DNA of 64,000 bases from a virus. Each line of letters begins with the position of its first letter. Position 1 is the first letter of the stretch. The stretch is taken from the IMG/VR virus record IMGVR_UViG_3300035670_000027; one strand, written 5' to 3'. A program made the translations under genes and the position numbers. The notes under the pieces were generated by a model. The model did no database searches, was not told the origin of the DNA, and saw only the letters and a program-made list of their open reading frames with translations. This document shows positions 17,279-46,429 of this stretch, one piece after another.

Positions 17279-17491
17279 TTATTGCTTATCTATAAAAGTT
17301 TTTAGAACCTCTGCTTCGTTCAGAATTTCTTTAGTGCTTGGAAACTCTGGCACTTCAGTTAGAGAAAGTTTCTCTTCTGCAATGTCTGCGTTTCTTCGTG
17401 CAACTTCAAATTTCTGATAATAGCGTTGGGTCAATTGATCCTGTGCCATCTTCAAAAGTTCAAGACGAATTTCATATGGTGTTTTAGTCAT
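17279..17491 (-). CDS. Conserved phage hypothetical protein (MTKTPYEIRLELLKMA)
   Basis: AAGGAG SD upstream of ATG 17491. Confidence 0.65.
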   Translation of the reverse strand: MTKTPYEIRLELLKMAQDQLTQRYYQKFEVARRNADIAEEKLSLTEVPEFPSTKEILNEAEVLKTFIDKQ

Positions 17492-17523
17492 AGTAATACT
17501 CCTTTTTGTGTGTGTGATAAAAA

Positions 17524-17850
17524 TGGTAGGTGATTGGGTAATAAGGTCCACCTACCGAAACCCCAGGAGGTTACGCCGCTAGGCGATATTCTCCAAAGTC
17601 TGCATCGTTTGCATTTACTCTTTTTGCTTCTACGGCCAGGTTGTCCTAACCCTACGGCTTTCGCATTGCCGGATCGTCCATTTCACTACTCTTTATCCTG
17701 TCGAAACCAGGTCACCCCCATCAGAAGCATACTGGCAACACCGACCATAAAGGTTCTCTTTACGATGTTTACAGTCCAATATGCTTTTGGTGGAGGTGGG
17801 CGGAATCGAACCGCCGTCCAGAACACCTTTCGATCTACTTCATACGATCA
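17524..17850 (-). ncRNA. ssrA: Circularly permuted (two-piece) tmRNA
   Basis: Acceptor piece ends GGTTCGATTCCGCC-CACCTCC-ACCA at 17788. An intervening hairpin follows, then the coding piece starting GGGGGTGACCTGGTTTCGAC at 17719 (G3.U70 pair). Tag ORF 17612-17571 reads ANDADFGEYRLAA*. Outer boundaries approximate. Confidence 0.93.
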
Positions 17851-17855
17851 TACTT

Positions 17856-18638
17856 TTATTTATAACGCAATAGCGTATCCGATACTGCAAATTCGGCAGG
17901 CTTCATCGGAAAATACTTCATCATCTTATCAACATTCAATACGCAATTGCTTCGTGGTGCGGTAGTAATTGACTTAAACTCTTCTTCCGTCATCCACTCT
18001 TTTTCAATACCCATCTTTGCTACAATTTGTTTACCAGTAATGCCACCTGGATTGCATACATTGTAAATACCAAATGGTGGTTTTGTTACAATAAAATGTG
18101 CGACACACTTTGCCAACTCTTCAACTTGCGTAATGCTATTCTCAAAACTGATTAGTTTACTATACAGTTCAAACTTTGTCAAGAGATTCTTTGGCGTTCG
18201 ATCAGGACCAAACGGCATCCGAATTCGAAATAGGTAAGAATTGTTAAGGTGTGGTTTGAGTAGTTCTTGCTCTAAGCCTTTACATGCGCTATAGAATGAT
18301 GCATTGTTAAAGGTGAAATTGGGTGCATCTTCTTCGGTCCAGCCACCGTCTTTGTAGCCAGTATAGATGCAACCACTAGAGATATGAAGAATAGGAATCT
18401 CATTTGCCCTCTTTTCTAGTTCCAATGGAAACAAAACATTGCCTTGCACACATTCATCTTTATAGATTTCACATGCATCAACATTTGGTACGCCAGTAAA
18501 ACCTGCGGCATTTACAATAAACTTTGTGTCTTTTGGTAGTGCATCATCGTGTCGAATATGGTTGTATTTCATTCCATATTCATCAAAATATTTTACAATA
18601 TAGCCAGCAACATATCCATGACCAATCAAAGTAATCAT
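17856..18638 (-). CDS. NAD-dependent epimerase/reductase (RmlD-like)
   Basis: LIGHGYVA, NAAGFTG.PNVDACE, HISSGCIY, SFYS..K, RIRMP. Confidence 0.85.
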   Translation of the reverse strand: MITLIGHGYVAGYIVKYFDEYGMKYNHIRHDDALPKDTKFIVNAAGFTGVPNVDACEIYKDECVQGNVLFPLELEKRANEIPILHISSGCIYTGYKDGGWTEEDAPNFTFNNASFYSACKGLEQELLKPHLNNSYLFRIRMPFGPDRTPKNLLTKFELYSKLISFENSITQVEELAKCVAHFIVTKPPFGIYNVCNPGGITGKQIVAKMGIEKEWMTEEEFKSITTAPRSNCVLNVDKMMKYFPMKPAEFAVSDTLLRYK

Positions 18639-41199: not shown

Positions 41200-41276
41200 T
41201 GGTACGGATGGCGGGACTCGAACCCGCAGGACTCAGATTTTAAGTCTGATATGTATACCGATTCCATCACATCCGC
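41200..41276 (-). tRNA. tRNA-Leu(UAA), short variable loop
   Basis: Cloverleaf, anticodon loop CTTAAAA, CCA. Confidence 0.9.
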
Positions 41277-41284
41277 AAAATTAC

Positions 41285-41313
41285 ATTATACTAAAATTTG
41301 CTCTGAATGTCAA
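41285..41313 (-). promoter_or_regulatory. Consensus sigma70 promoter
   Basis: TTGACA-17-TATAAT. Confidence 0.85.
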
Positions 41314-41453
41314 TGAACCAGTCGCAAGAGGTGGAAAAAGTTTTCATGGTATAACAACCTAGAAAGTCTCCTGTGTATATAAGCAATGCCGTGAAAATCA
41401 TCATGGCAAATATGATTGCCCAATCTTTTATTTTTTTCATATCACTATCCTTA

Positions 41454-41540
41454 TGGCGGAGAGTATAGGATTCGAACCTATGCGCCTCTTTCGAAACGAC
41501 GGATTAGCAATCCGCTACATTACCACTCTGTCAACTCTCC
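41454..41540 (-). tRNA. tRNA-Ser(GCU)
   Basis: Long variable arm, loop TTGCTAA, CCA. Confidence 0.92.
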
Positions 41541-41545
41541 ATGAT

Positions 41546-41619
41546 TGGAGCGGCTAGCGAGAATCGAACTCGCATCCGAACCTTGGCAAGGTCCCGTTCT
41601 ACCATTTAACTATAGCCGC
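41546..41619 (-). tRNA. tRNA-Gly(GCC)
   Basis: Loop TTGCCAA, TCCA end. Confidence 0.92.
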
Positions 41620-41624
41620 ATGTT

Positions 41625-41714
41625 TGGCGGAAGCGGTGAGATTCGAACTCACGGTGCCTTTCGACACGACAGTTTTCAAGACTGTTGCAATAAACCGGGC
41701 TCTGCCACGCTTCC
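41625..41714 (-). tRNA. tRNA-Ser(UGA)
   Basis: Loop CTTGAAA, long variable arm. Confidence 0.92.
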
Positions 41715-41719
41715 TTATT

Positions 41720-41796
41720 TGGTGCCTCAGGCGGGAGTCGAACCCGCAAAATCCAGTTTCTAAGACTGACATGTATACCAATTCCATCACCGAGGC
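41720..41796 (-). tRNA. tRNA-Leu(UAG), short variable loop
   Basis: Loop CTTAGAA. Confidence 0.9.
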
Positions 41797-41797
41797 T

Positions 41798-41872
41798 TGG
41801 TGCCGAATGGTGGGTTCGAACCACCGACTTACGCCTTATCAAGACGCCACTCTACCGCTGAGTTAATCCGGC
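41798..41872 (-). tRNA. tRNA-Ile(GAU)
   Basis: Loop TTGATAA. Confidence 0.9.
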
Positions 41873-41944
41873 AAAACTTTATTGTACATTACCACGAATC
41901 CACTTCCAGTATTCTTCTGCTGACATGTGATTCTCCTTTATGTA

Positions 41945-42020
41945 TGGTGCCACCTGTTGGAATCGAACCAACTTCCTCGGCTCTTCAGACCGGTGCAATG
42001 ACCACACTTGCTCAAGTGGC
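41945..42020 (-). tRNA. tRNA-Phe(GAA)
   Basis: Loop CTGAAGA. Confidence 0.88.
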
Positions 42021-42022
42021 TT

Positions 42023-42098
42023 TGGTGCGCCTAGTAGGATTCGAACCTACGATCCATCGATTATGAGTCGATTGCCTTGACCGCTTGGCTATGGGCGC
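42023..42098 (-). tRNA. tRNA(CAU), probably Ile2 (lysidine)
   Basis: Loop CTCATAA; the two other CAU tRNAs fit Met and fMet. Confidence 0.8.
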
Positions 42099-42099
42099 A

Positions 42100-42174
42100 T
42101 GGTACCCGGTGACGGGATTGAACCGCCGACATTCGCCTTGTAAGGGCGCTACTCTACCGCTGAGTTAACCGGGC
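42100..42174 (-). tRNA. tRNA-Val(UAC)
   Basis: Loop CTTACAA. Confidence 0.92.
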
Positions 42175-42178
42175 AAAA

Positions 42179-42254
42179 TGGGGTAACCTATGAGGATCGA
42201 ACTCATACTATCTCGGTCACAACGAGAGGTGCAGACCACTACACTAAGGTCACC
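42179..42254 (-). tRNA. tRNA-His(GUG)
   Basis: Loop TTGTGAC, G-1 and C73. Confidence 0.9.
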
Positions 42255-42259
42255 ATTGT

Positions 42260-42336
42260 TGGCTACGGCGGAGGGATTCGAACCCCCAACATACAGTTTT
42301 GGAGACTGTCGTTCTGCCAGTTGGAACTACGCCGTA
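42260..42336 (-). tRNA. tRNA-Trp(CCA)
   Basis: Loop CTCCAAA. Confidence 0.9.
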
Positions 42337-42343
42337 TCGTTTT

Positions 42344-42418
42344 TGGCTGGGGCACAAGGATTCGAACCTCGGAATGCCGGAATCAAAATCCGGTGCCTTA
42401 CCGCTTGGCGATACCCCA
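42344..42418 (-). tRNA. tRNA-Gln(UUG)
   Basis: TGGGGTATCGCCAAGCGGTAAGGCA start, loop TTTTGAT. Confidence 0.95.
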
Positions 42419-42421
42419 ATG

Positions 42422-42892
42422 TTATGCGGCTACTGCGTACTTGAATCTGTCTGCCGCATGTGTCGCCGCCCATGCATGTGGCTTCACTAAAGGAATCACA
42501 TTGCATGTACCACGAATGTAGCCTATTGCTTCGTTGATCACACATGAAGAACCATGCATTTCATTTGGATTGATATCTAAATGAACTTCAACATGACGCC
42601 CTTCTAGTACATCTGCAAGTTTCAAATACATTTCACTTGCTTTGTACACTTCATTCATTAGTCTGAATCTTGGTCGATCAATCTTTTGGTCGTAATCTCT
42701 TTCACGATCTACTTGACCAAAGAGTTTGCATCCATTGTTGCCGTTGATATGCACTACGATTGCAGTAATGTAATCAGCATACCACACTTCACCTAAGCGG
42801 AATCGTTCTGAATCGCAACCTAGGTAAATCTTTGTTTCTGCCGACTGTCTTGCAATGTATTCTCTTACTTCTTCTAGGTTCAATTTTCTCAC
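42422..42892 (-). CDS. RNase H-like YkuK (DUF458) family protein
   Basis: IYLGCDS, TAIVVH, RL..EV, VHLDIN, KP.AWAA..AAD. Confidence 0.8.
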   Translation of the reverse strand: MRKLNLEEVREYIARQSAETKIYLGCDSERFRLGEVWYADYITAIVVHINGNNGCKLFGQVDRERDYDQKIDRPRFRLMNEVYKASEMYLKLADVLEGRHVEVHLDINPNEMHGSSCVINEAIGYIRGTCNVIPLVKPHAWAATHAADRFKYAVAA

Positions 42893-42916
42893 GATCCACT
42901 CCTTTCGTATATTTAA

Positions 42917-42992
42917 TGGAGCGGGTAGTGGGTATCGAACCCATCTACTTCAGTTTGGAAGACTGACATGTATCCATAAACACCTTACCCGC
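42917..42992 (-). tRNA. tRNA-Gly(UCC)
   Basis: Loop CTTCCAA, TCCA end. Confidence 0.9.
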
Positions 42993-43404
42993 AATACTCT
43001 ATAAACTCTTCGTACATTTTGTCGCCAAGTTTGTTGGCTTCGATTTCCCATGGATGATCTTCATAAGGTACAACATCCGAGTTGACCTTGCGTGACTTCC
43101 ATTTGGTTAATTCTTCGTTGATTTCATTTCTGACAAACTGACGAACATGAACCATCTCATGCGCCATTGTTTGAATTTGAGTGTTTTGATCATCTTCTTT
43201 GGCAATTTCCATGATGAAATAGCGTGGTTCTCCGACCACATTATAGTCATCGACATATACTGCCCCATAATCACTACTGTTTGATACAAACTTCACACGG
43301 ATATGCAAATTGGCAATCATCTGTGGAGAGAACAATCTCTCGGCAAAAAAATTCAAAGCCTTTTTCTGTTTCGATTTTATTCGTGAACCATAGAGATTTA
43401 GCAT
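42985..43404 (-). CDS. HExxH metallopeptidase-like protein
   Basis: AHEMVH.RQ...PWEIEA. Confidence 0.7.
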   Translation of the reverse strand: MLNLYGSRIKSKQKKALNFFAERLFSPQMIANLHIRVKFVSNSSDYGAVYVDDYNVVGEPRYFIMEIAKEDDQNTQIQTMAHEMVHVRQFVRNEINEELTKWKSRKVNSDVVPYEDHPWEIEANKLGDKMYEEFIEYCG

Positions 43405-43446
43405 ATCAACCTCCTTTCATCACATATTTATCCATTACAATATTTC

Positions 43447-43523
43447 TGGTCGGAGATGCAGGATTCGAACCTGCGACCCTCTGCTCCCAAAGCAGATGCG
43501 CTACCAGACTGCGCTAATCTCCG
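43447..43523 (-). tRNA. tRNA-Pro(UGG)
   Basis: CGG start, loop TTTGGGA. Confidence 0.95.
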
Positions 43524-43527
43524 AAAT

Positions 43528-43601
43528 TGGTGCCCTTGGTCTGAATCGAACAGACAGTCACGGATTACAAAACCGTTGGTTTACCACTAACCGACAAGGG
43601 C
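43528..43601 (-). tRNA. tRNA-Thr(UGU)
   Basis: Loop TTTGTAA, GCCC acceptor. Confidence 0.85.
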
Positions 43602-44531
43602 AATGTTACTCATTTGCTTTTCGACCATCTCAACATACTGGTCTTTTACTTTCTCGCCATTGTTCTTGTATAAGTCACAAGCACAATAGGCACAATTCTT
43701 ACCGACAACCAAATAATTCAGTACAATGTGTTTATAATTCTGATTCATGCTTTCGTACTTAAAAAACTCAGTTACATCAACACCGTTCTTCCAAAGCAAA
43801 TCAATTGAATTGAACACTAACGACCTTTGGTCGAAATGCTTCAAACCGTTCACTTGCAAAAACTCCATGTACTTTTCAGGATTCAATCGTATCAGACTAT
43901 ACAGTATGCTATAAACTGTTCCTAATTTATGCGACAACTCTCTTGAAATAAACAAGTCTGCAACATCGCTAACTAAACCATATTTTGATACATCGTTAAT
44001 TGCACCTTTGTCCCAAAGAAAGTTCCAGTCATTTCGAATCATGTAGTCTAGCAAGTCTCTAAGTCTACTAGGTTCTCCATCATTTGTCAAGTATGAATAC
44101 CTACCACATTTGTAATCTAGCATGTAATACGACTGAGCATTTTCCTCATCATATAACACATAGTCTAGCACATCTACCGATGAAAACTCAAAGATGGTAG
44201 AGTTTAAAACAATTGTTCCTTCTTTGACACCACATGTGCCAATGAAGTCTGGAAAGAATGGCTGATACTTCTCTTGAAAAATGCCAGTCTTACCTTTGAA
44301 ACATTTTTTTGCTACTTGATATCCTAAATAAAAGATATCAGTCTTTTCTAAAATCTCATATCTGAGATCATCGAATTCTAGCATTGTGTGATAACGATAT
44401 GGAACACCAACGCCTTTGTAGTAACACTTGTTACCTTTTGAAACTCTGCCATTAATGTGTTGAATATCATCATCAATACTCAACTCATTTATCTGCACAC
44501 CTAACGAATCATAAATCGGAACTATAGTCAT
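43587..44531 (-). CDS. Hypothetical protein within the tRNA array
   Basis: 314-aa ORF, AAGGA SD, C-terminal CAYCAC. Confidence 0.65.
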   Translation of the reverse strand: MTIVPIYDSLGVQINELSIDDDIQHINGRVSKGNKCYYKGVGVPYRYHTMLEFDDLRYEILEKTDIFYLGYQVAKKCFKGKTGIFQEKYQPFFPDFIGTCGVKEGTIVLNSTIFEFSSVDVLDYVLYDEENAQSYYMLDYKCGRYSYLTNDGEPSRLRDLLDYMIRNDWNFLWDKGAINDVSKYGLVSDVADLFISRELSHKLGTVYSILYSLIRLNPEKYMEFLQVNGLKHFDQRSLVFNSIDLLWKNGVDVTEFFKYESMNQNYKHIVLNYLVVGKNCAYCACDLYKNNGEKVKDQYVEMVEKQMSNIALVG

Positions 44532-44543
44532 ATGTTATCCTTT

Positions 44544-44618
44544 TGGTGGTGATGGCAGGAGTCGAGCCTGCAACCTCTGCCGTATGAAGGCATTGCACTA
44601 CCATTGTGCTACATCACC
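44544..44618 (-). tRNA. tRNA-Met(CAU), elongator
   Basis: Loop TTCATAC. Confidence 0.88.
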
Positions 44619-44625
44619 TATACTT

Positions 44626-44809
44626 AGCCATTAGTGAGAGTACTGCCATATCCGTTTAATGCCTTTAGATAAAACGGCATCTCTTACCTTAGTAACCATC
44701 TATCGAGGCTGACTAATTCCTCATCTAGGCGATGGCGGTAGAGAGCGGTATTCCCTCGGCAGTCAGGTCGCTAGTCAAGCACCTCGCTTTCGGACTCTCA
44801 CTAATGGCT
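44626..44809 (-). ncRNA. Candidate structured ncRNA (184 nt)
   Basis: Perfect 16-bp closing stem AGCCATTAGTGAGAGT/ACTCTCACTAATGGCT with nested helices; no ORF. Confidence 0.6.
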
Positions 44810-44879
44810 CCAGAGGTAGGGATCGAACCTACGACACACGGATTAACAGTCCGCTGATCTACCGCTGATCTACTCTGGA
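44805..44879 (-). tRNA. tRNA-Asn(GUU)
   Basis: Loop CTGTTAA, GCCA end. Confidence 0.92.
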
Positions 44880-44880
44880 A

Positions 44881-45114
44881 CAGGTGCTTCCTCTCTGCGG
44901 CGGTAATTATAGTCTATGTGGTCTTTGCTTTCGCTATACATAAACCTTCCACCCGCTCCTCGACCAGAGAGGATTGTCGCATTGCCAGCGCCGGTTCGGT
45001 TTGACCTGCCCTTGTGAGGCAATCTCATTTTCCATGAGATGGAACCACCCATGAGTAACGAACTCATTTCTCCTTCCTGCGGGTCACAGTAGCCAAGCGT
45101 TACCTCGGCGGGGT
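44881..45114 (-). ncRNA. Candidate ornate structured ncRNA (~235 nt)
   Basis: Multiple hairpins and long-range helices between tRNA-fMet and tRNA-Asn; GC-rich; no credible ORF. Confidence 0.65.
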
Positions 45115-45115
45115 C

Positions 45116-45191
45116 GGTAGCAGAGGCAGGATTCGAACCTGCGATTCTCGGCTTATGAGACCAAGCGGATAGACCTCTTCCATACTCTGCG
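45116..45191 (-). tRNA. tRNA-fMet(CAU)
   Basis: C1 mismatch, loop CTCATAA; 3' end encoded as ACCG instead of ACCA. Confidence 0.85.
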
Positions 45192-45196
45192 AAACT

Positions 45197-45271
45197 TGGC
45201 GGTCTCAACGGGAATCGAACCCGTCCCTGCGCCGTGACAGGGCGCTATACTAACCGATATACTATGAGACC
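45197..45271 (-). tRNA. tRNA-Asp(GUC)
   Basis: Loop CTGTCAC. Confidence 0.92.
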
Positions 45272-45281
45272 AATATTTAGT

Positions 45282-45310
45282 ATTGTACAACAAAAAACTT
45301 GATTTGTCAA
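45282..45310 (-). promoter_or_regulatory. Internal sigma70 promoter in the tRNA array
   Basis: TTGACA-17-TACAAT. Confidence 0.75.
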
Positions 45311-45311
45311 G

Positions 45312-45385
45312 TGGTAGGGGCACGGAGAATCGAACTCCGGTTAATAGGTTAAAAGCCTACTACTTTGCCACTAAGTTATACCCCC
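45312..45385 (-). tRNA. tRNA-Lys(UUU)
   Basis: Loop CTTTTAA. Confidence 0.9.
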
Positions 45386-45393
45386 ACAAAATC

Positions 45394-45468
45394 TGGCACC
45401 ACCTGAAGGAATCAAACCCTCAACTCAAGGTCCGTAGCCTAGCGTGATATTCATTTCACTAAGGTGGT
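45394..45468 (-). tRNA. tRNA-Arg(ACG)
   Basis: Loop CTACGGA; somewhat divergent D and T loops. Confidence 0.8.
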
Positions 45469-45475
45469 ATAAAAC

Positions 45476-45553
45476 TGGAGTGAGGAGTGGGATTCGAACC
45501 CACGATACAAGAGTTTTGCAGGCTCCGCCATTTGACCGCTCTGGCATCCTCAC
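45476..45553 (-). tRNA. tRNA-Cys(GCA)
   Basis: Loop CTGCAAA, U73. Confidence 0.88.
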
Positions 45554-45558
45554 ATGAA

Positions 45559-45634
45559 TGGTGGAGAGTATCGGGTTCGAACCGATGACCTCCTGCTTGC
45601 AAAGCAGGCATTCTCCCAACTGAACTAACTCCCC
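45559..45634 (-). tRNA. tRNA-Ala(UGC)
   Basis: G3.U70, loop TTTGCAA. Confidence 0.93.
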
Positions 45635-45740
45635 ATATTGAAGCACACCGACAGTATCGAAACTGCCCACACCGCCGAAAGACGATGCTAGGTCCACTCC
45701 CAAGGCCGGCGCCGTCTAGCCTTAGTGTGCTTCAATATGG
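45633..45740 (-). ncRNA. Candidate tRNA-mimic ncRNA with extended closing stem
   Basis: 17-bp stem CCATATTGAAGCACACT/GGTGTGCTTCAATATGG enclosing four arms, including a TTCGAT T-like loop. Confidence 0.55.
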
Positions 45741-45825
45741 TGGGTGGTGATGGTAACGCTCCACGAGGCAACTTCCGATCTTATTATGCCGACGGTTTTA
45801 CAGACCGCTGACCGGGGCACCACCC
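45738..45825 (-). tRNA. Atypical D-arm-less tRNA-Tyr(GUA)
   Basis: 7-bp acceptor plus ACCA, anticodon arm GCGGT-CTGTAAA-ACCGT, 10-nt D replacement, large variable arm, T-loop AGCGTTA. Confidence 0.65.
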
Positions 45826-45833
45826 ATAAACTT

Positions 45834-45955
45834 CCATTTGAAATGCTGACTGCACTATTTGCTATACCTCATATGCTTTATCTAGAATTACATCTTATCG
45901 GTATAGTTACTCAGGCGTTGCACCGCCCATGGCTTACAATCAGCATATCAAATGG
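45834..45955 (-). ncRNA. Candidate structured ncRNA (~120 nt)
   Basis: Long closing stem CCATTTGATATGCTGA/TCAGCATTTCAAATGG with two internal hairpins. Confidence 0.5.
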
Positions 45956-45977
45956 TGCCCACCGGGCACCGAAACTT

Positions 45978-46154
45978 TTACAATTTATCAGCAATCTCAA
46001 CTTCGAAACACAATCGATTCGAAATTGTTCTTGCCACTTGAATCCAAAACAAACTTCTTTCAGATTCTAATTTATCGAAAACAAACTTTACGATTTTGAC
46101 ATTATCAAAGTCGCACTCTTTTTGAATCAACTCAACAGTCTTATCAACTTTCAT
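45978..46154 (-). CDS. Small hypothetical protein
   Basis: GAGG SD, MKVDKTVELIQKECDF start. Confidence 0.5.
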   Translation of the reverse strand: MKVDKTVELIQKECDFDNVKIVKFVFDKLESERSLFWIQVARTISNRLCFEVEIADKL

Positions 46155-46175
46155 TTGTTTCCTCTCAAAATTAAG

Positions 46176-46250
46176 TGGTACACCGTAGGGGAATCGAACC
46201 CCTCTTACCGCCGTGAAAGGGCGGTGTCCTAACCGATAGACGAACGGTGC
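46176..46250 (-). tRNA. tRNA-Glu(UUC)
   Basis: Loop CTTTCAC. Confidence 0.93.
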
Positions 46251-46251
46251 A

Positions 46252-46327
46252 TGGCCTGCCCGGCAGGAATCGAACCTGCGACCCATTGCTTAGAAGGCAA
46301 TTGTTCTATCCTCTGAACTACGGGCAG
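46252..46327 (-). tRNA. tRNA-Arg(UCU)
   Basis: Loop TTCTAA, GCCA end. Confidence 0.92.
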
Positions 46328-46376: not shown

Positions 46377-46429
46377 AGTATACTCTACATCTCATCGGTT
46401 GTCAACACCTAGTGTTGTTTTCCTACGAC
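46377..46429 (-). promoter_or_regulatory. sigma70 promoter of the tRNA array
   Basis: TTGACA-17-TATACT plus a GTTG-N8-CGAC box variant. Confidence 0.8.

Follow-up and report, generated by a model that had tools for sequence, protein, structure and literature searches.

What is encoded in the 236-nt gap between an initiator-like tRNA-Met gene and a tRNA-Asn gene in the tRNA array of a T4-like phage, and what could its product be doing there? The gap lies in a 64,000-nt stretch of viral DNA (hereafter the window) with 25 tRNA genes on its minus strand (41200-46327), and was originally predicted, from the sequence, to hold an ornate RNA of about 235 nt. That part of the prediction stands: the gap (44880-45115, minus strand) is a structured non-coding RNA (ncRNA) gene of 236 nt, the support coming from covariation among relatives.

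The tRNA array around the gap

The bounds of the gene are those given by ARAGORN and Rfam tRNA calls on either side, and the local layout, in the direction of the tRNA genes, is as follows.

45282-45310, minus strand: predicted sigma-70-like promoter, TTGACA and TACAAT spaced by 17 nt, scoring 11/12 in a consensus scan
45116-45191, minus strand: upstream tRNA-Met(CAU), initiator-like, with a C1 x U72 mismatch
44880-45115, minus strand: whole RNA gene, 236 nt, bounded by the tRNAs; a covariance model of its 5' domain (R1, below) scores 104.7 bits on 44974-45115, the sole copy in the window
44805-44879, minus strand: downstream tRNA-Asn

Behind the candidate promoter (45310-45282), a sequence block which is also present in contig L019, the order is tRNA-Asp, tRNA-Met, the ncRNA, tRNA-Asn, a second structured element (element 2) and a further tRNA-Met. 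A second near-consensus promoter of sigma-70 type is predicted ahead of tRNA-Arg(UCU) (46377-46405, minus strand, 11/12). With one candidate before tRNA-Asp and another before tRNA-Arg(UCU), both inside the array, the array appears to be made up of several transcription units.

The tRNA-Met upstream of the ncRNA had been singled out as the only tRNA here without an encoded CCA, and this was borne out, as 24 of the 25 window tRNAs encode CCA and tRNA-Met has CCG. However, the orthologue of this tRNA in contig L002, the closest relative, ends in CCA, and most members of the RNA family described below follow a normal CCA, hence the CCG is a local point change and no feature of the ncRNA. The description of the RNA as fused behind tRNA-fMet was overstated. 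The upstream tRNA differs from phage to phage (Ser, Tyr, Ala, Gly, Glu, Pro, Asp or Met), and in L019 the tRNA-Met/tRNA-Asn spacer is only 7 nt long and without the ncRNA. In L018, the spacer also lacks the ncRNA and instead contains a different, AT-rich sequence of ~90 nt (about 3060-3150 of L018). The absence of the ncRNA from the same spacer in both contigs shows it to be an independent gene, and the spacer seems to accommodate small RNAs that can be exchanged for one another.

Element 2 is a structured RNA of 186 nt (44619-44804, minus strand) situated between tRNA-Asn and the next tRNA-Met, and its closing helix of ~15 bp takes in the last bases of tRNA-Asn, AGCCA. The element is kept in L002, L018 and L019, exists also without the ncRNA (element 1), has five pairs with double changes and showed no Rfam match. 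Elsewhere in the array there is a 540-nt stretch without tRNAs (45635-46175, minus strand), and, flanked by tRNA genes, a gene for an RNase H-like protein of family PF04308 (YkuK/DUF458 type; 42422-42892, minus strand). This gene is also met with in the tRNA arrays of other, related phages (11/77 related loci).

Family and fold of the RNA

The first relative was found in the syntenic IMG/VR contig L002, where the tRNA-Met/RNA/tRNA-Asn arrangement is as in the window, two hairpins are swapped wholesale for other hairpins and single pairs are altered on both sides. An exact 18-mer at the T-loop-like hairpin was present in 30 IMG/VR contigs, four of which were judged from their flanks to be chance matches in coding DNA, and a degenerate pattern added seven viral contigs and 79 metagenome contigs. 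Together, the IMG/VR and JGI metagenome contigs supplied 77 distinct variants (205-301 nt), every one of them on the tRNA strand, which have a near-invariant 30-nt core in common and helices that vary by compensating changes. A hand-curated structure was tested on two alignments, one of 21 full-length sequences (A4, 59 pairs in 12 helices) and one of 54 sequences over the 5' 140 nt (A6, 35 pairs), and the 5' domain (5' 140 positions) was also cast as a covariance model, R1.

No match to the ncRNA was found in Rfam 15 (cmscan, 4227 families, E <= 10), either within its flanks or alone with truncated matches allowed, and six other family members gave none at the ncRNA at E <= 1. In 50,697 GenBank phage records, blastn with two different members did not find the family, leaving it with no cultured carrier there; a 23-nt core pattern had no bacterial copy in one genome per GTDB species, and no mention of the core strings was found in the full-text papers searched. 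Structured-RNA candidates from IMG/VR have been surveyed before, with 8,495 unnamed ones reported (PMC10690425), among which the family may be included. As measured against Rfam 15, GenBank phages and GTDB, the family is a new, ornate and strongly conserved RNA of phage tRNA arrays. It is widespread among uncultivated T4-like and jumbo phages, inside tRNA arrays. Also newly described here are its L1-L3 kissing loop, its minimal forms, its single-copy state and the negative searches for partner genes.

Taken singly, the window sequence folds unremarkably (MFE -76.8 kcal/mol, z = -1.52, 16/200 shuffles folding equally well), hence the case for the fold rests on covariation. Within A4, 91.7% of positions assigned to pairs are paired and 37 of the 59 pairs show double changes, values for which none of 500 column shuffles reached any of five measures, and sliding the partners by 1-3 columns left only 36-47% paired. 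The larger sample in A6 behaves alike (91.4% paired, double changes in 24 of 35 pairs). The many G-U pairs set the coding strand as the minus strand, which is that of the tRNAs. We regard both family and fold as established, the fold being a comparative-sequence model with strong support. From 5' to 3', its parts are P1, P2, P3, a putative junction helix, P4a, P4b, the T-loop-like hairpin and the P7/P7b/P8/P9 arm.

45092-45109, minus strand: P1 hairpin, 6 bp, loop GUAACG (L1); double changes at 4/5 pairs in A4 and 5/5 in A6
45077-45089, minus strand: P2 hairpin CUGUG/CGCAG, loop ACC(C); paired in 100% of A4 and 99.1% of A6
45047-45050 with 45081-45084, minus strand: PK1, proposed pseudoknot of GGGU, which follows P3, with the P2 loop ACCC
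45051-45067, minus strand: P3 hairpin, loop UCGUU (L3); covarying pairs 4/5 in A4 and 5/5 in A6
45098-45102 with 45056-45060, minus strand: modelled L1-L3 kissing loop, UAACG with CGUUA in the window
44993-45046, minus strand: putative junction helix GGUUC/GAACC, enclosing P4a, P4b and the conserved strand GGUCAAACC
45022-45040, minus strand: P4a AUCUCAU/AUGAGAU; double changes at 6/6 pairs
45007-45021, minus strand: P4b UGCC/GGCA; double changes at 3/4 pairs, the loop being a GNRA tetraloop in most relatives
44978-44990, minus strand: T-loop-like hairpin, 3-bp stem and 7-nt loop UGGCAAU, at the centre of the near-invariant core
44889-44973, minus strand: 3' domain of P7, P7b, P8, an internal loop, P9 and the tip
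44965-44973 with 44889-44897, minus strand: P7, a 9-bp long-range helix, followed by the 2-bp P7b; six double-change pairs in P7 and P7b together
44953-44956 with 44900-44903, minus strand: P8 GCGG/CCGC; two double-change pairs, from eight sequences
44940-44946 with 44911-44917, minus strand: P9; five pairs with double changes
44880-44888, minus strand: single-stranded 3' tail AGCACCUGU, running into tRNA-Asn, with AGCA kept across the family

All of the minus-strand hairpins named in the original prediction are in the sequence, and conserved structure is present among the homologues (77 variants with covarying helices). Compensating changes in relatives back P1 (GCCGAG/CUUGGC), P3 (AUGAG/CUCAU), P4a and P4b, as well as the long-range helices P7 and P8. 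The predicted T-loop-like hairpin, CGC-TGGCAAT-GCG, has a covarying stem, in which CGC/GCG is replaced by CGU/ACG (12 sequences) or by CCU/AGG (one sequence). Missed at that stage were the P2 hairpin, with double changes at 4/4 pairs in A4 and 3/4 in A6, the pseudoknot of its loop, P9 and the L1-L3 kissing loop. The junction helix GGUUC/GAACC is a possible one, both strands being invariant in 54/54 sequences and hence yielding no covariation signal.

Among 70 variants, the L1 and L3 loops are AUCA/UGAU in 37, AACG/CGU in 20 and GUCA/UGAC in 10, with a wobble combination (GUCA/UGAU) in three and no discordant case; judged from these three matched sequence classes, the loops of P1 and P3 kiss. 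The strands of PK1 are invariant save in L033, where ACUC is matched by GAGU, and this single compensating event lends moderate support to a hairpin-loop pseudoknot. Two other arrangements were considered and rejected. The alternative proposed by RNAalifold, a pairing of ACCGCC with the 5' copy of GGGUGG, is ruled out by the covariation of P8, and a conformational switch between the two GGGUGG copies is excluded by covariation at 204/303 and 205/302.

The 3' arm contains an internal loop between P8 and P9, with GUGGAA opposite AUAAUUA, and ends in a degenerate, variable tip. A candidate box C/D-like k-turn motif, identified by sequence pattern (C-stem, 3-nt bulge and tandem G-A/A-G pairs, RUGAUGA opposite CUGA), occurs at this tip in 41/70 variants and in a variant form in six more. 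It is missing from the window copy and from the minimal members L099 and L106, which makes it an accessory feature. Both P4a and P4b are missing from about a dozen minimal variants.

Comparison with known RNAs

GOLLD (RF01998) and ROOL (RF03087) are large ornate RNAs of roughly 500-800 nt which frequently occur next to tRNA genes in phages or prophages. The ncRNA resembles them in its intricate fold and in its habitat beside phage tRNAs; however, the family is far smaller (205-301 nt) and matches neither RF01998 nor RF03087. The original prediction had left two options, a compact member of such a class or a new class. The search with GOLLD, ROOL and the other Rfam models, with no match at E <= 10, removed the first, whereas the second stands as a new ornate and conserved family.

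The closest known kind of RNA is represented by species 1 and 2 (rnaC and rnaD), two small stable RNAs which T4 encodes head-to-tail with its tRNA genes. Both begin directly behind the CCA of a tRNA, and they have no established function in the T4 annotation (NC_000866). However, rnaC and rnaD are 119-139 nt long, were detected by blastn only in T-even phages and have no homology to the ncRNA, and the consensus fold of rnaD is a simple long hairpin, unlike that of the ncRNA. The strings AUGAGAA and UGAUG, which the ncRNA has in common with T4 rnaD, are not conserved among T-even rnaD genes, and homology on that basis was rejected. The window phage is itself T4-like, as judged from a nuclease of T4 RNase H type. 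By flap endonuclease (56% identity), the cultured phage closest to it is Methylophilales phage Melnitz, of the family Kyanoviridae. Neither Melnitz nor T4 has the ncRNA by R1, T4 giving only a 14-bit noise match outside its tRNA region.

Theta (HDV-like) ribozymes are also structured RNAs adjoining a tRNA gene, in gut phages, for which a function at the 3' end or 3'-trailer of the tRNA has been postulated, and only 4.5% of their associated tRNAs encode CCA (PMC10879173). By comparison, the ncRNA is much larger, CCA is the rule upstream of it, and hosts and habitats differ. Its 5' end is a covarying local hairpin with no nested double pseudoknot from +1, and there was no Rfam match of HDV type.

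RNase P was likewise not recognised, with no Rfam RNase P match, truncated matching included, and a best score of 1.5 bits for R1 against E. coli rnpB with filters off. A split or mini form of RNase P was considered from the likeness of the window P1 to RNase P P8 and from a CR-I-like string in element 2, and was dropped; there was no Rfam or rnpB match, and the likeness of P1 to P8 is confined to one subtype. For T-boxes there was no RF00230 match, the lone alternative pairing is contradicted by covariation and a tRNA usually lies downstream; the GGGUGG/ACCGCC pair which had suggested a T-box-like sensor of CCA is helix P8. YrlA/Ro60 membership found no RF02553 match and no TROVE domain in five carrier genomes. 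Membership in GOLLD, ROOL, RNase P, T-box, YrlA and HDV-like families failed in each case, and the ncRNA belongs to none of them.

With RNAs that bind the tRNA elbow (the RNase P S-domain, T-box stem I and the L1 stalk) the ncRNA shares a T-loop-like loop, UGGCAAU, its internal loop has a second UGGAA pentad, and most members have a putative k-turn. However, its two T-loop-like motifs are ~15 bp apart in secondary structure and not adjacent. T-loops and k-turns also occur in T-box leaders, a possible likeness to the ncRNA which serves as a lead only. Mimicry of rRNA was rejected, as an 11-mer in common with 23S H88 and strings in common with 5S are at chance level (expected ~0.3/sequence) and the structures differ. 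Against E. coli rRNA, no conserved strand was complementary above chance, 8-9-mers to 16S being at chance level.

Proposed release from tRNA precursors and possible roles

A tRNA adjoins the 5' side of the ncRNA in 38/77 variants and lies within 260 nt on its 3' side in 39/77. From our reading of the junction listing, ~70% of variants start 1-5 nt, mostly A, past the CCA-type end of a tRNA or mini-helix. The remaining ~30% are without a recognisable upstream CCA end, and some copies have an ORF start ~30 nt or less downstream. As in the window, R1 detected a single copy in each of five large phage records (141-335 kb, many tRNAs each), two of which are estimated to be at least 95% complete.

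Clustering of the ORFs at the 77 loci revealed no consistent adjacent protein family, the counts being RNaseH-like (n = 11), metallophosphoesterase (n = 10) and MazG-like (n = 7), so that a dedicated protein partner nearby was rejected. Genes for L7Ae, Ro60 (TROVE domain), RnpA and a CCA-adding enzyme were not found in the five carrier genomes. An RNA polymerase omega homologue is encoded in L049 (1485-1694; Pfam RNA_pol_Rpb6, E = 2e-12), starting ~130 nt past the ncRNA; omega homologues occur in four of the five large carrier genomes (G002-G005), 150 nt to 17 kb from the ncRNA, and none was found within the 64 kb of the window.

The explanation which best accounts for these observations as a whole, and to which we assign a probability of roughly 50%, is that a single-copy gene encodes a compact, doubly knotted RNA of ~236 nt which is cut from a tRNA precursor and acts in trans. 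Three findings speak for release and action in trans: each genome has one copy only, the adjoining tRNAs change from phage to phage, and the spacer also exists without the RNA. Transcription would be shared with the tRNAs and would start, in the window, at the sigma-70-like promoter (45310-45282). Its 5' end would be made by an endonucleolytic cut in the short A-rich linker past the upstream CCA, and its 3' end presumably by RNase P cleavage at the next tRNA, in this case at tRNA-Asn +1. Excision by the enzymes that mature tRNAs is in our judgement likely, yet the ~30% of copies without a CCA end and those close to an ORF start imply that it is not the whole story. Once released, the RNA is expected to form a rigid particle in which three 5' hairpins are locked by the kissing loop and the loop pseudoknot, alongside the T-loop hairpin and the long 3' arm. 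Such a particle may bind a conserved macromolecule of the host and so act in trans, the target probably being one of tRNA handling or translation. A conserved host target is suggested by the invariance of the core and of the junction strands despite helix drift and by the lack of an evident phage protein partner; we put it forward tentatively, as somewhat short of an even chance, and the invariance of the core would fit a catalytic centre equally well.

The best surviving of the other readings, although an unlikely one, is that the RNA is a cis-acting block of the tRNA operon which guides or insulates processing by RNase E, III or P, or stops exonucleases, and is idle after release. It would account for the strict use of the tRNA strand and the embedding in arrays, and the closing helix of element 2, by including the CCA of tRNA-Asn, is a precursor-level feature. 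An insulator, however, needs no 30-nt invariant core, T-loop and two pseudoknots kept over distant phages, and the ncRNA is single-copy, dispensable at the same spacer in L019 and found away from tRNAs too.

A self-cleaving or self-processing ribozyme, which by a cut at its own 5' boundary would leave the upstream tRNA with a free 3' CCA end, is a little less probable still. The start 1-5 nt past a CCA end in most variants and an invariant core with two pseudoknots are in keeping with it, and the theta ribozymes provide a published precedent beside phage tRNAs. Against this, there is a single copy per genome versus 25-32 tRNAs, the partner tRNA is not conserved, many copies have no upstream tRNA at all and the spacing between CCA and the first conserved base is variable. 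The fold, moreover, opens with a local hairpin and not with an HDV P1 strand, no match to HDV, hatchet, glmS or twister was found, and the RNA is of a size far beyond the need of a simple cut.

By analogy with GOLLD and ROOL, the RNA might assemble as a homo-oligomeric, RNA-only cage or ring, as a compact analogue and not as a member of those families. Homo-oligomers are described for GOLLD, ROOL and OLE (PMC12286853); the phage, tRNA-side habitat is the same, the ornate fold has many tertiary motifs, and its exposed conserved strands could contact other molecules. We consider this improbable, as the ncRNA has no Rfam match to GOLLD or ROOL and a third to half of their size, and both of its loop-loop pairings are accounted for inside a single molecule. 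Control of a downstream gene or tRNA by the RNA, as a riboswitch or leader, is disfavoured and, in our estimate, very improbable. In a minority of contigs the 3' tail does lie 20-30 nt before an ORF, for example one of MazG-like type (7 loci) or the omega homologue (L049), but most downstream neighbours are tRNAs of various kinds, the others being unrelated ORFs, and there is no terminator or alternative that would sequester a Shine-Dalgarno sequence, the sole alternative pairing from RNAalifold being contradicted by covariation. The cis-acting, oligomeric and leader readings are all rated below release and action in trans.

Finally, a small protein gene or a chance hairpin-rich spacer is refuted: the window copy does have an open frame (44870-45208) with an ATG at 45067 (66 codons) behind a AGGAAGGAG stretch, and its single-sequence z-score is weak, but this frame is broken by 1-8 stops in 22/22 other members tested, substitutions in helices are compensatory rather than synonymous, and the observed covariation was reached by 0/500 shuffles.

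Large, highly conserved structured RNAs of no known function are rare, and earlier cases have proved to be ribozymes, riboswitches or RNA machines. The present family bears the same hallmarks in its invariant junction strands, two pseudoknots, T-loop, GNRA loop and optional k-turn-like motif. One speculative extension, no more probable than self-cleavage, is that the invariant core with its two pseudoknots provides an active site or a specific docking site for tRNA, which would make the ncRNA a new large phage ribozyme or tRNA-binding RNA acting on 3' CCA ends. If true, it could process or protect these ends, or serve as a decoy against host defences that attack them, and its seat right after CCA and its occurrence as one copy per phage with its own tRNA set would be explained.

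The binding partner or reaction of the ncRNA, once known, would show how such phages take over or protect host tRNAs and translation. The same knowledge would offer a first functional lead on the stable RNAs of phage tRNA clusters, which have been a puzzle since T4 species 1 and 2, and the structural model is detailed enough for the design of probing, mutate-and-rescue and pull-down work. Many large phages that are uncultivated and have near-complete tRNA sets and a tmRNA keep the ncRNA as a single gene. In the window, the tmRNA is a permuted two-piece form of betaproteobacterial type (17480-17900, minus strand) with the tag ANDADFGEYRLAA, a type which hints at betaproteobacterial hosts, and a similar tmRNA is found ~2.5 kb from the ncRNA in L024, L025 and L047.
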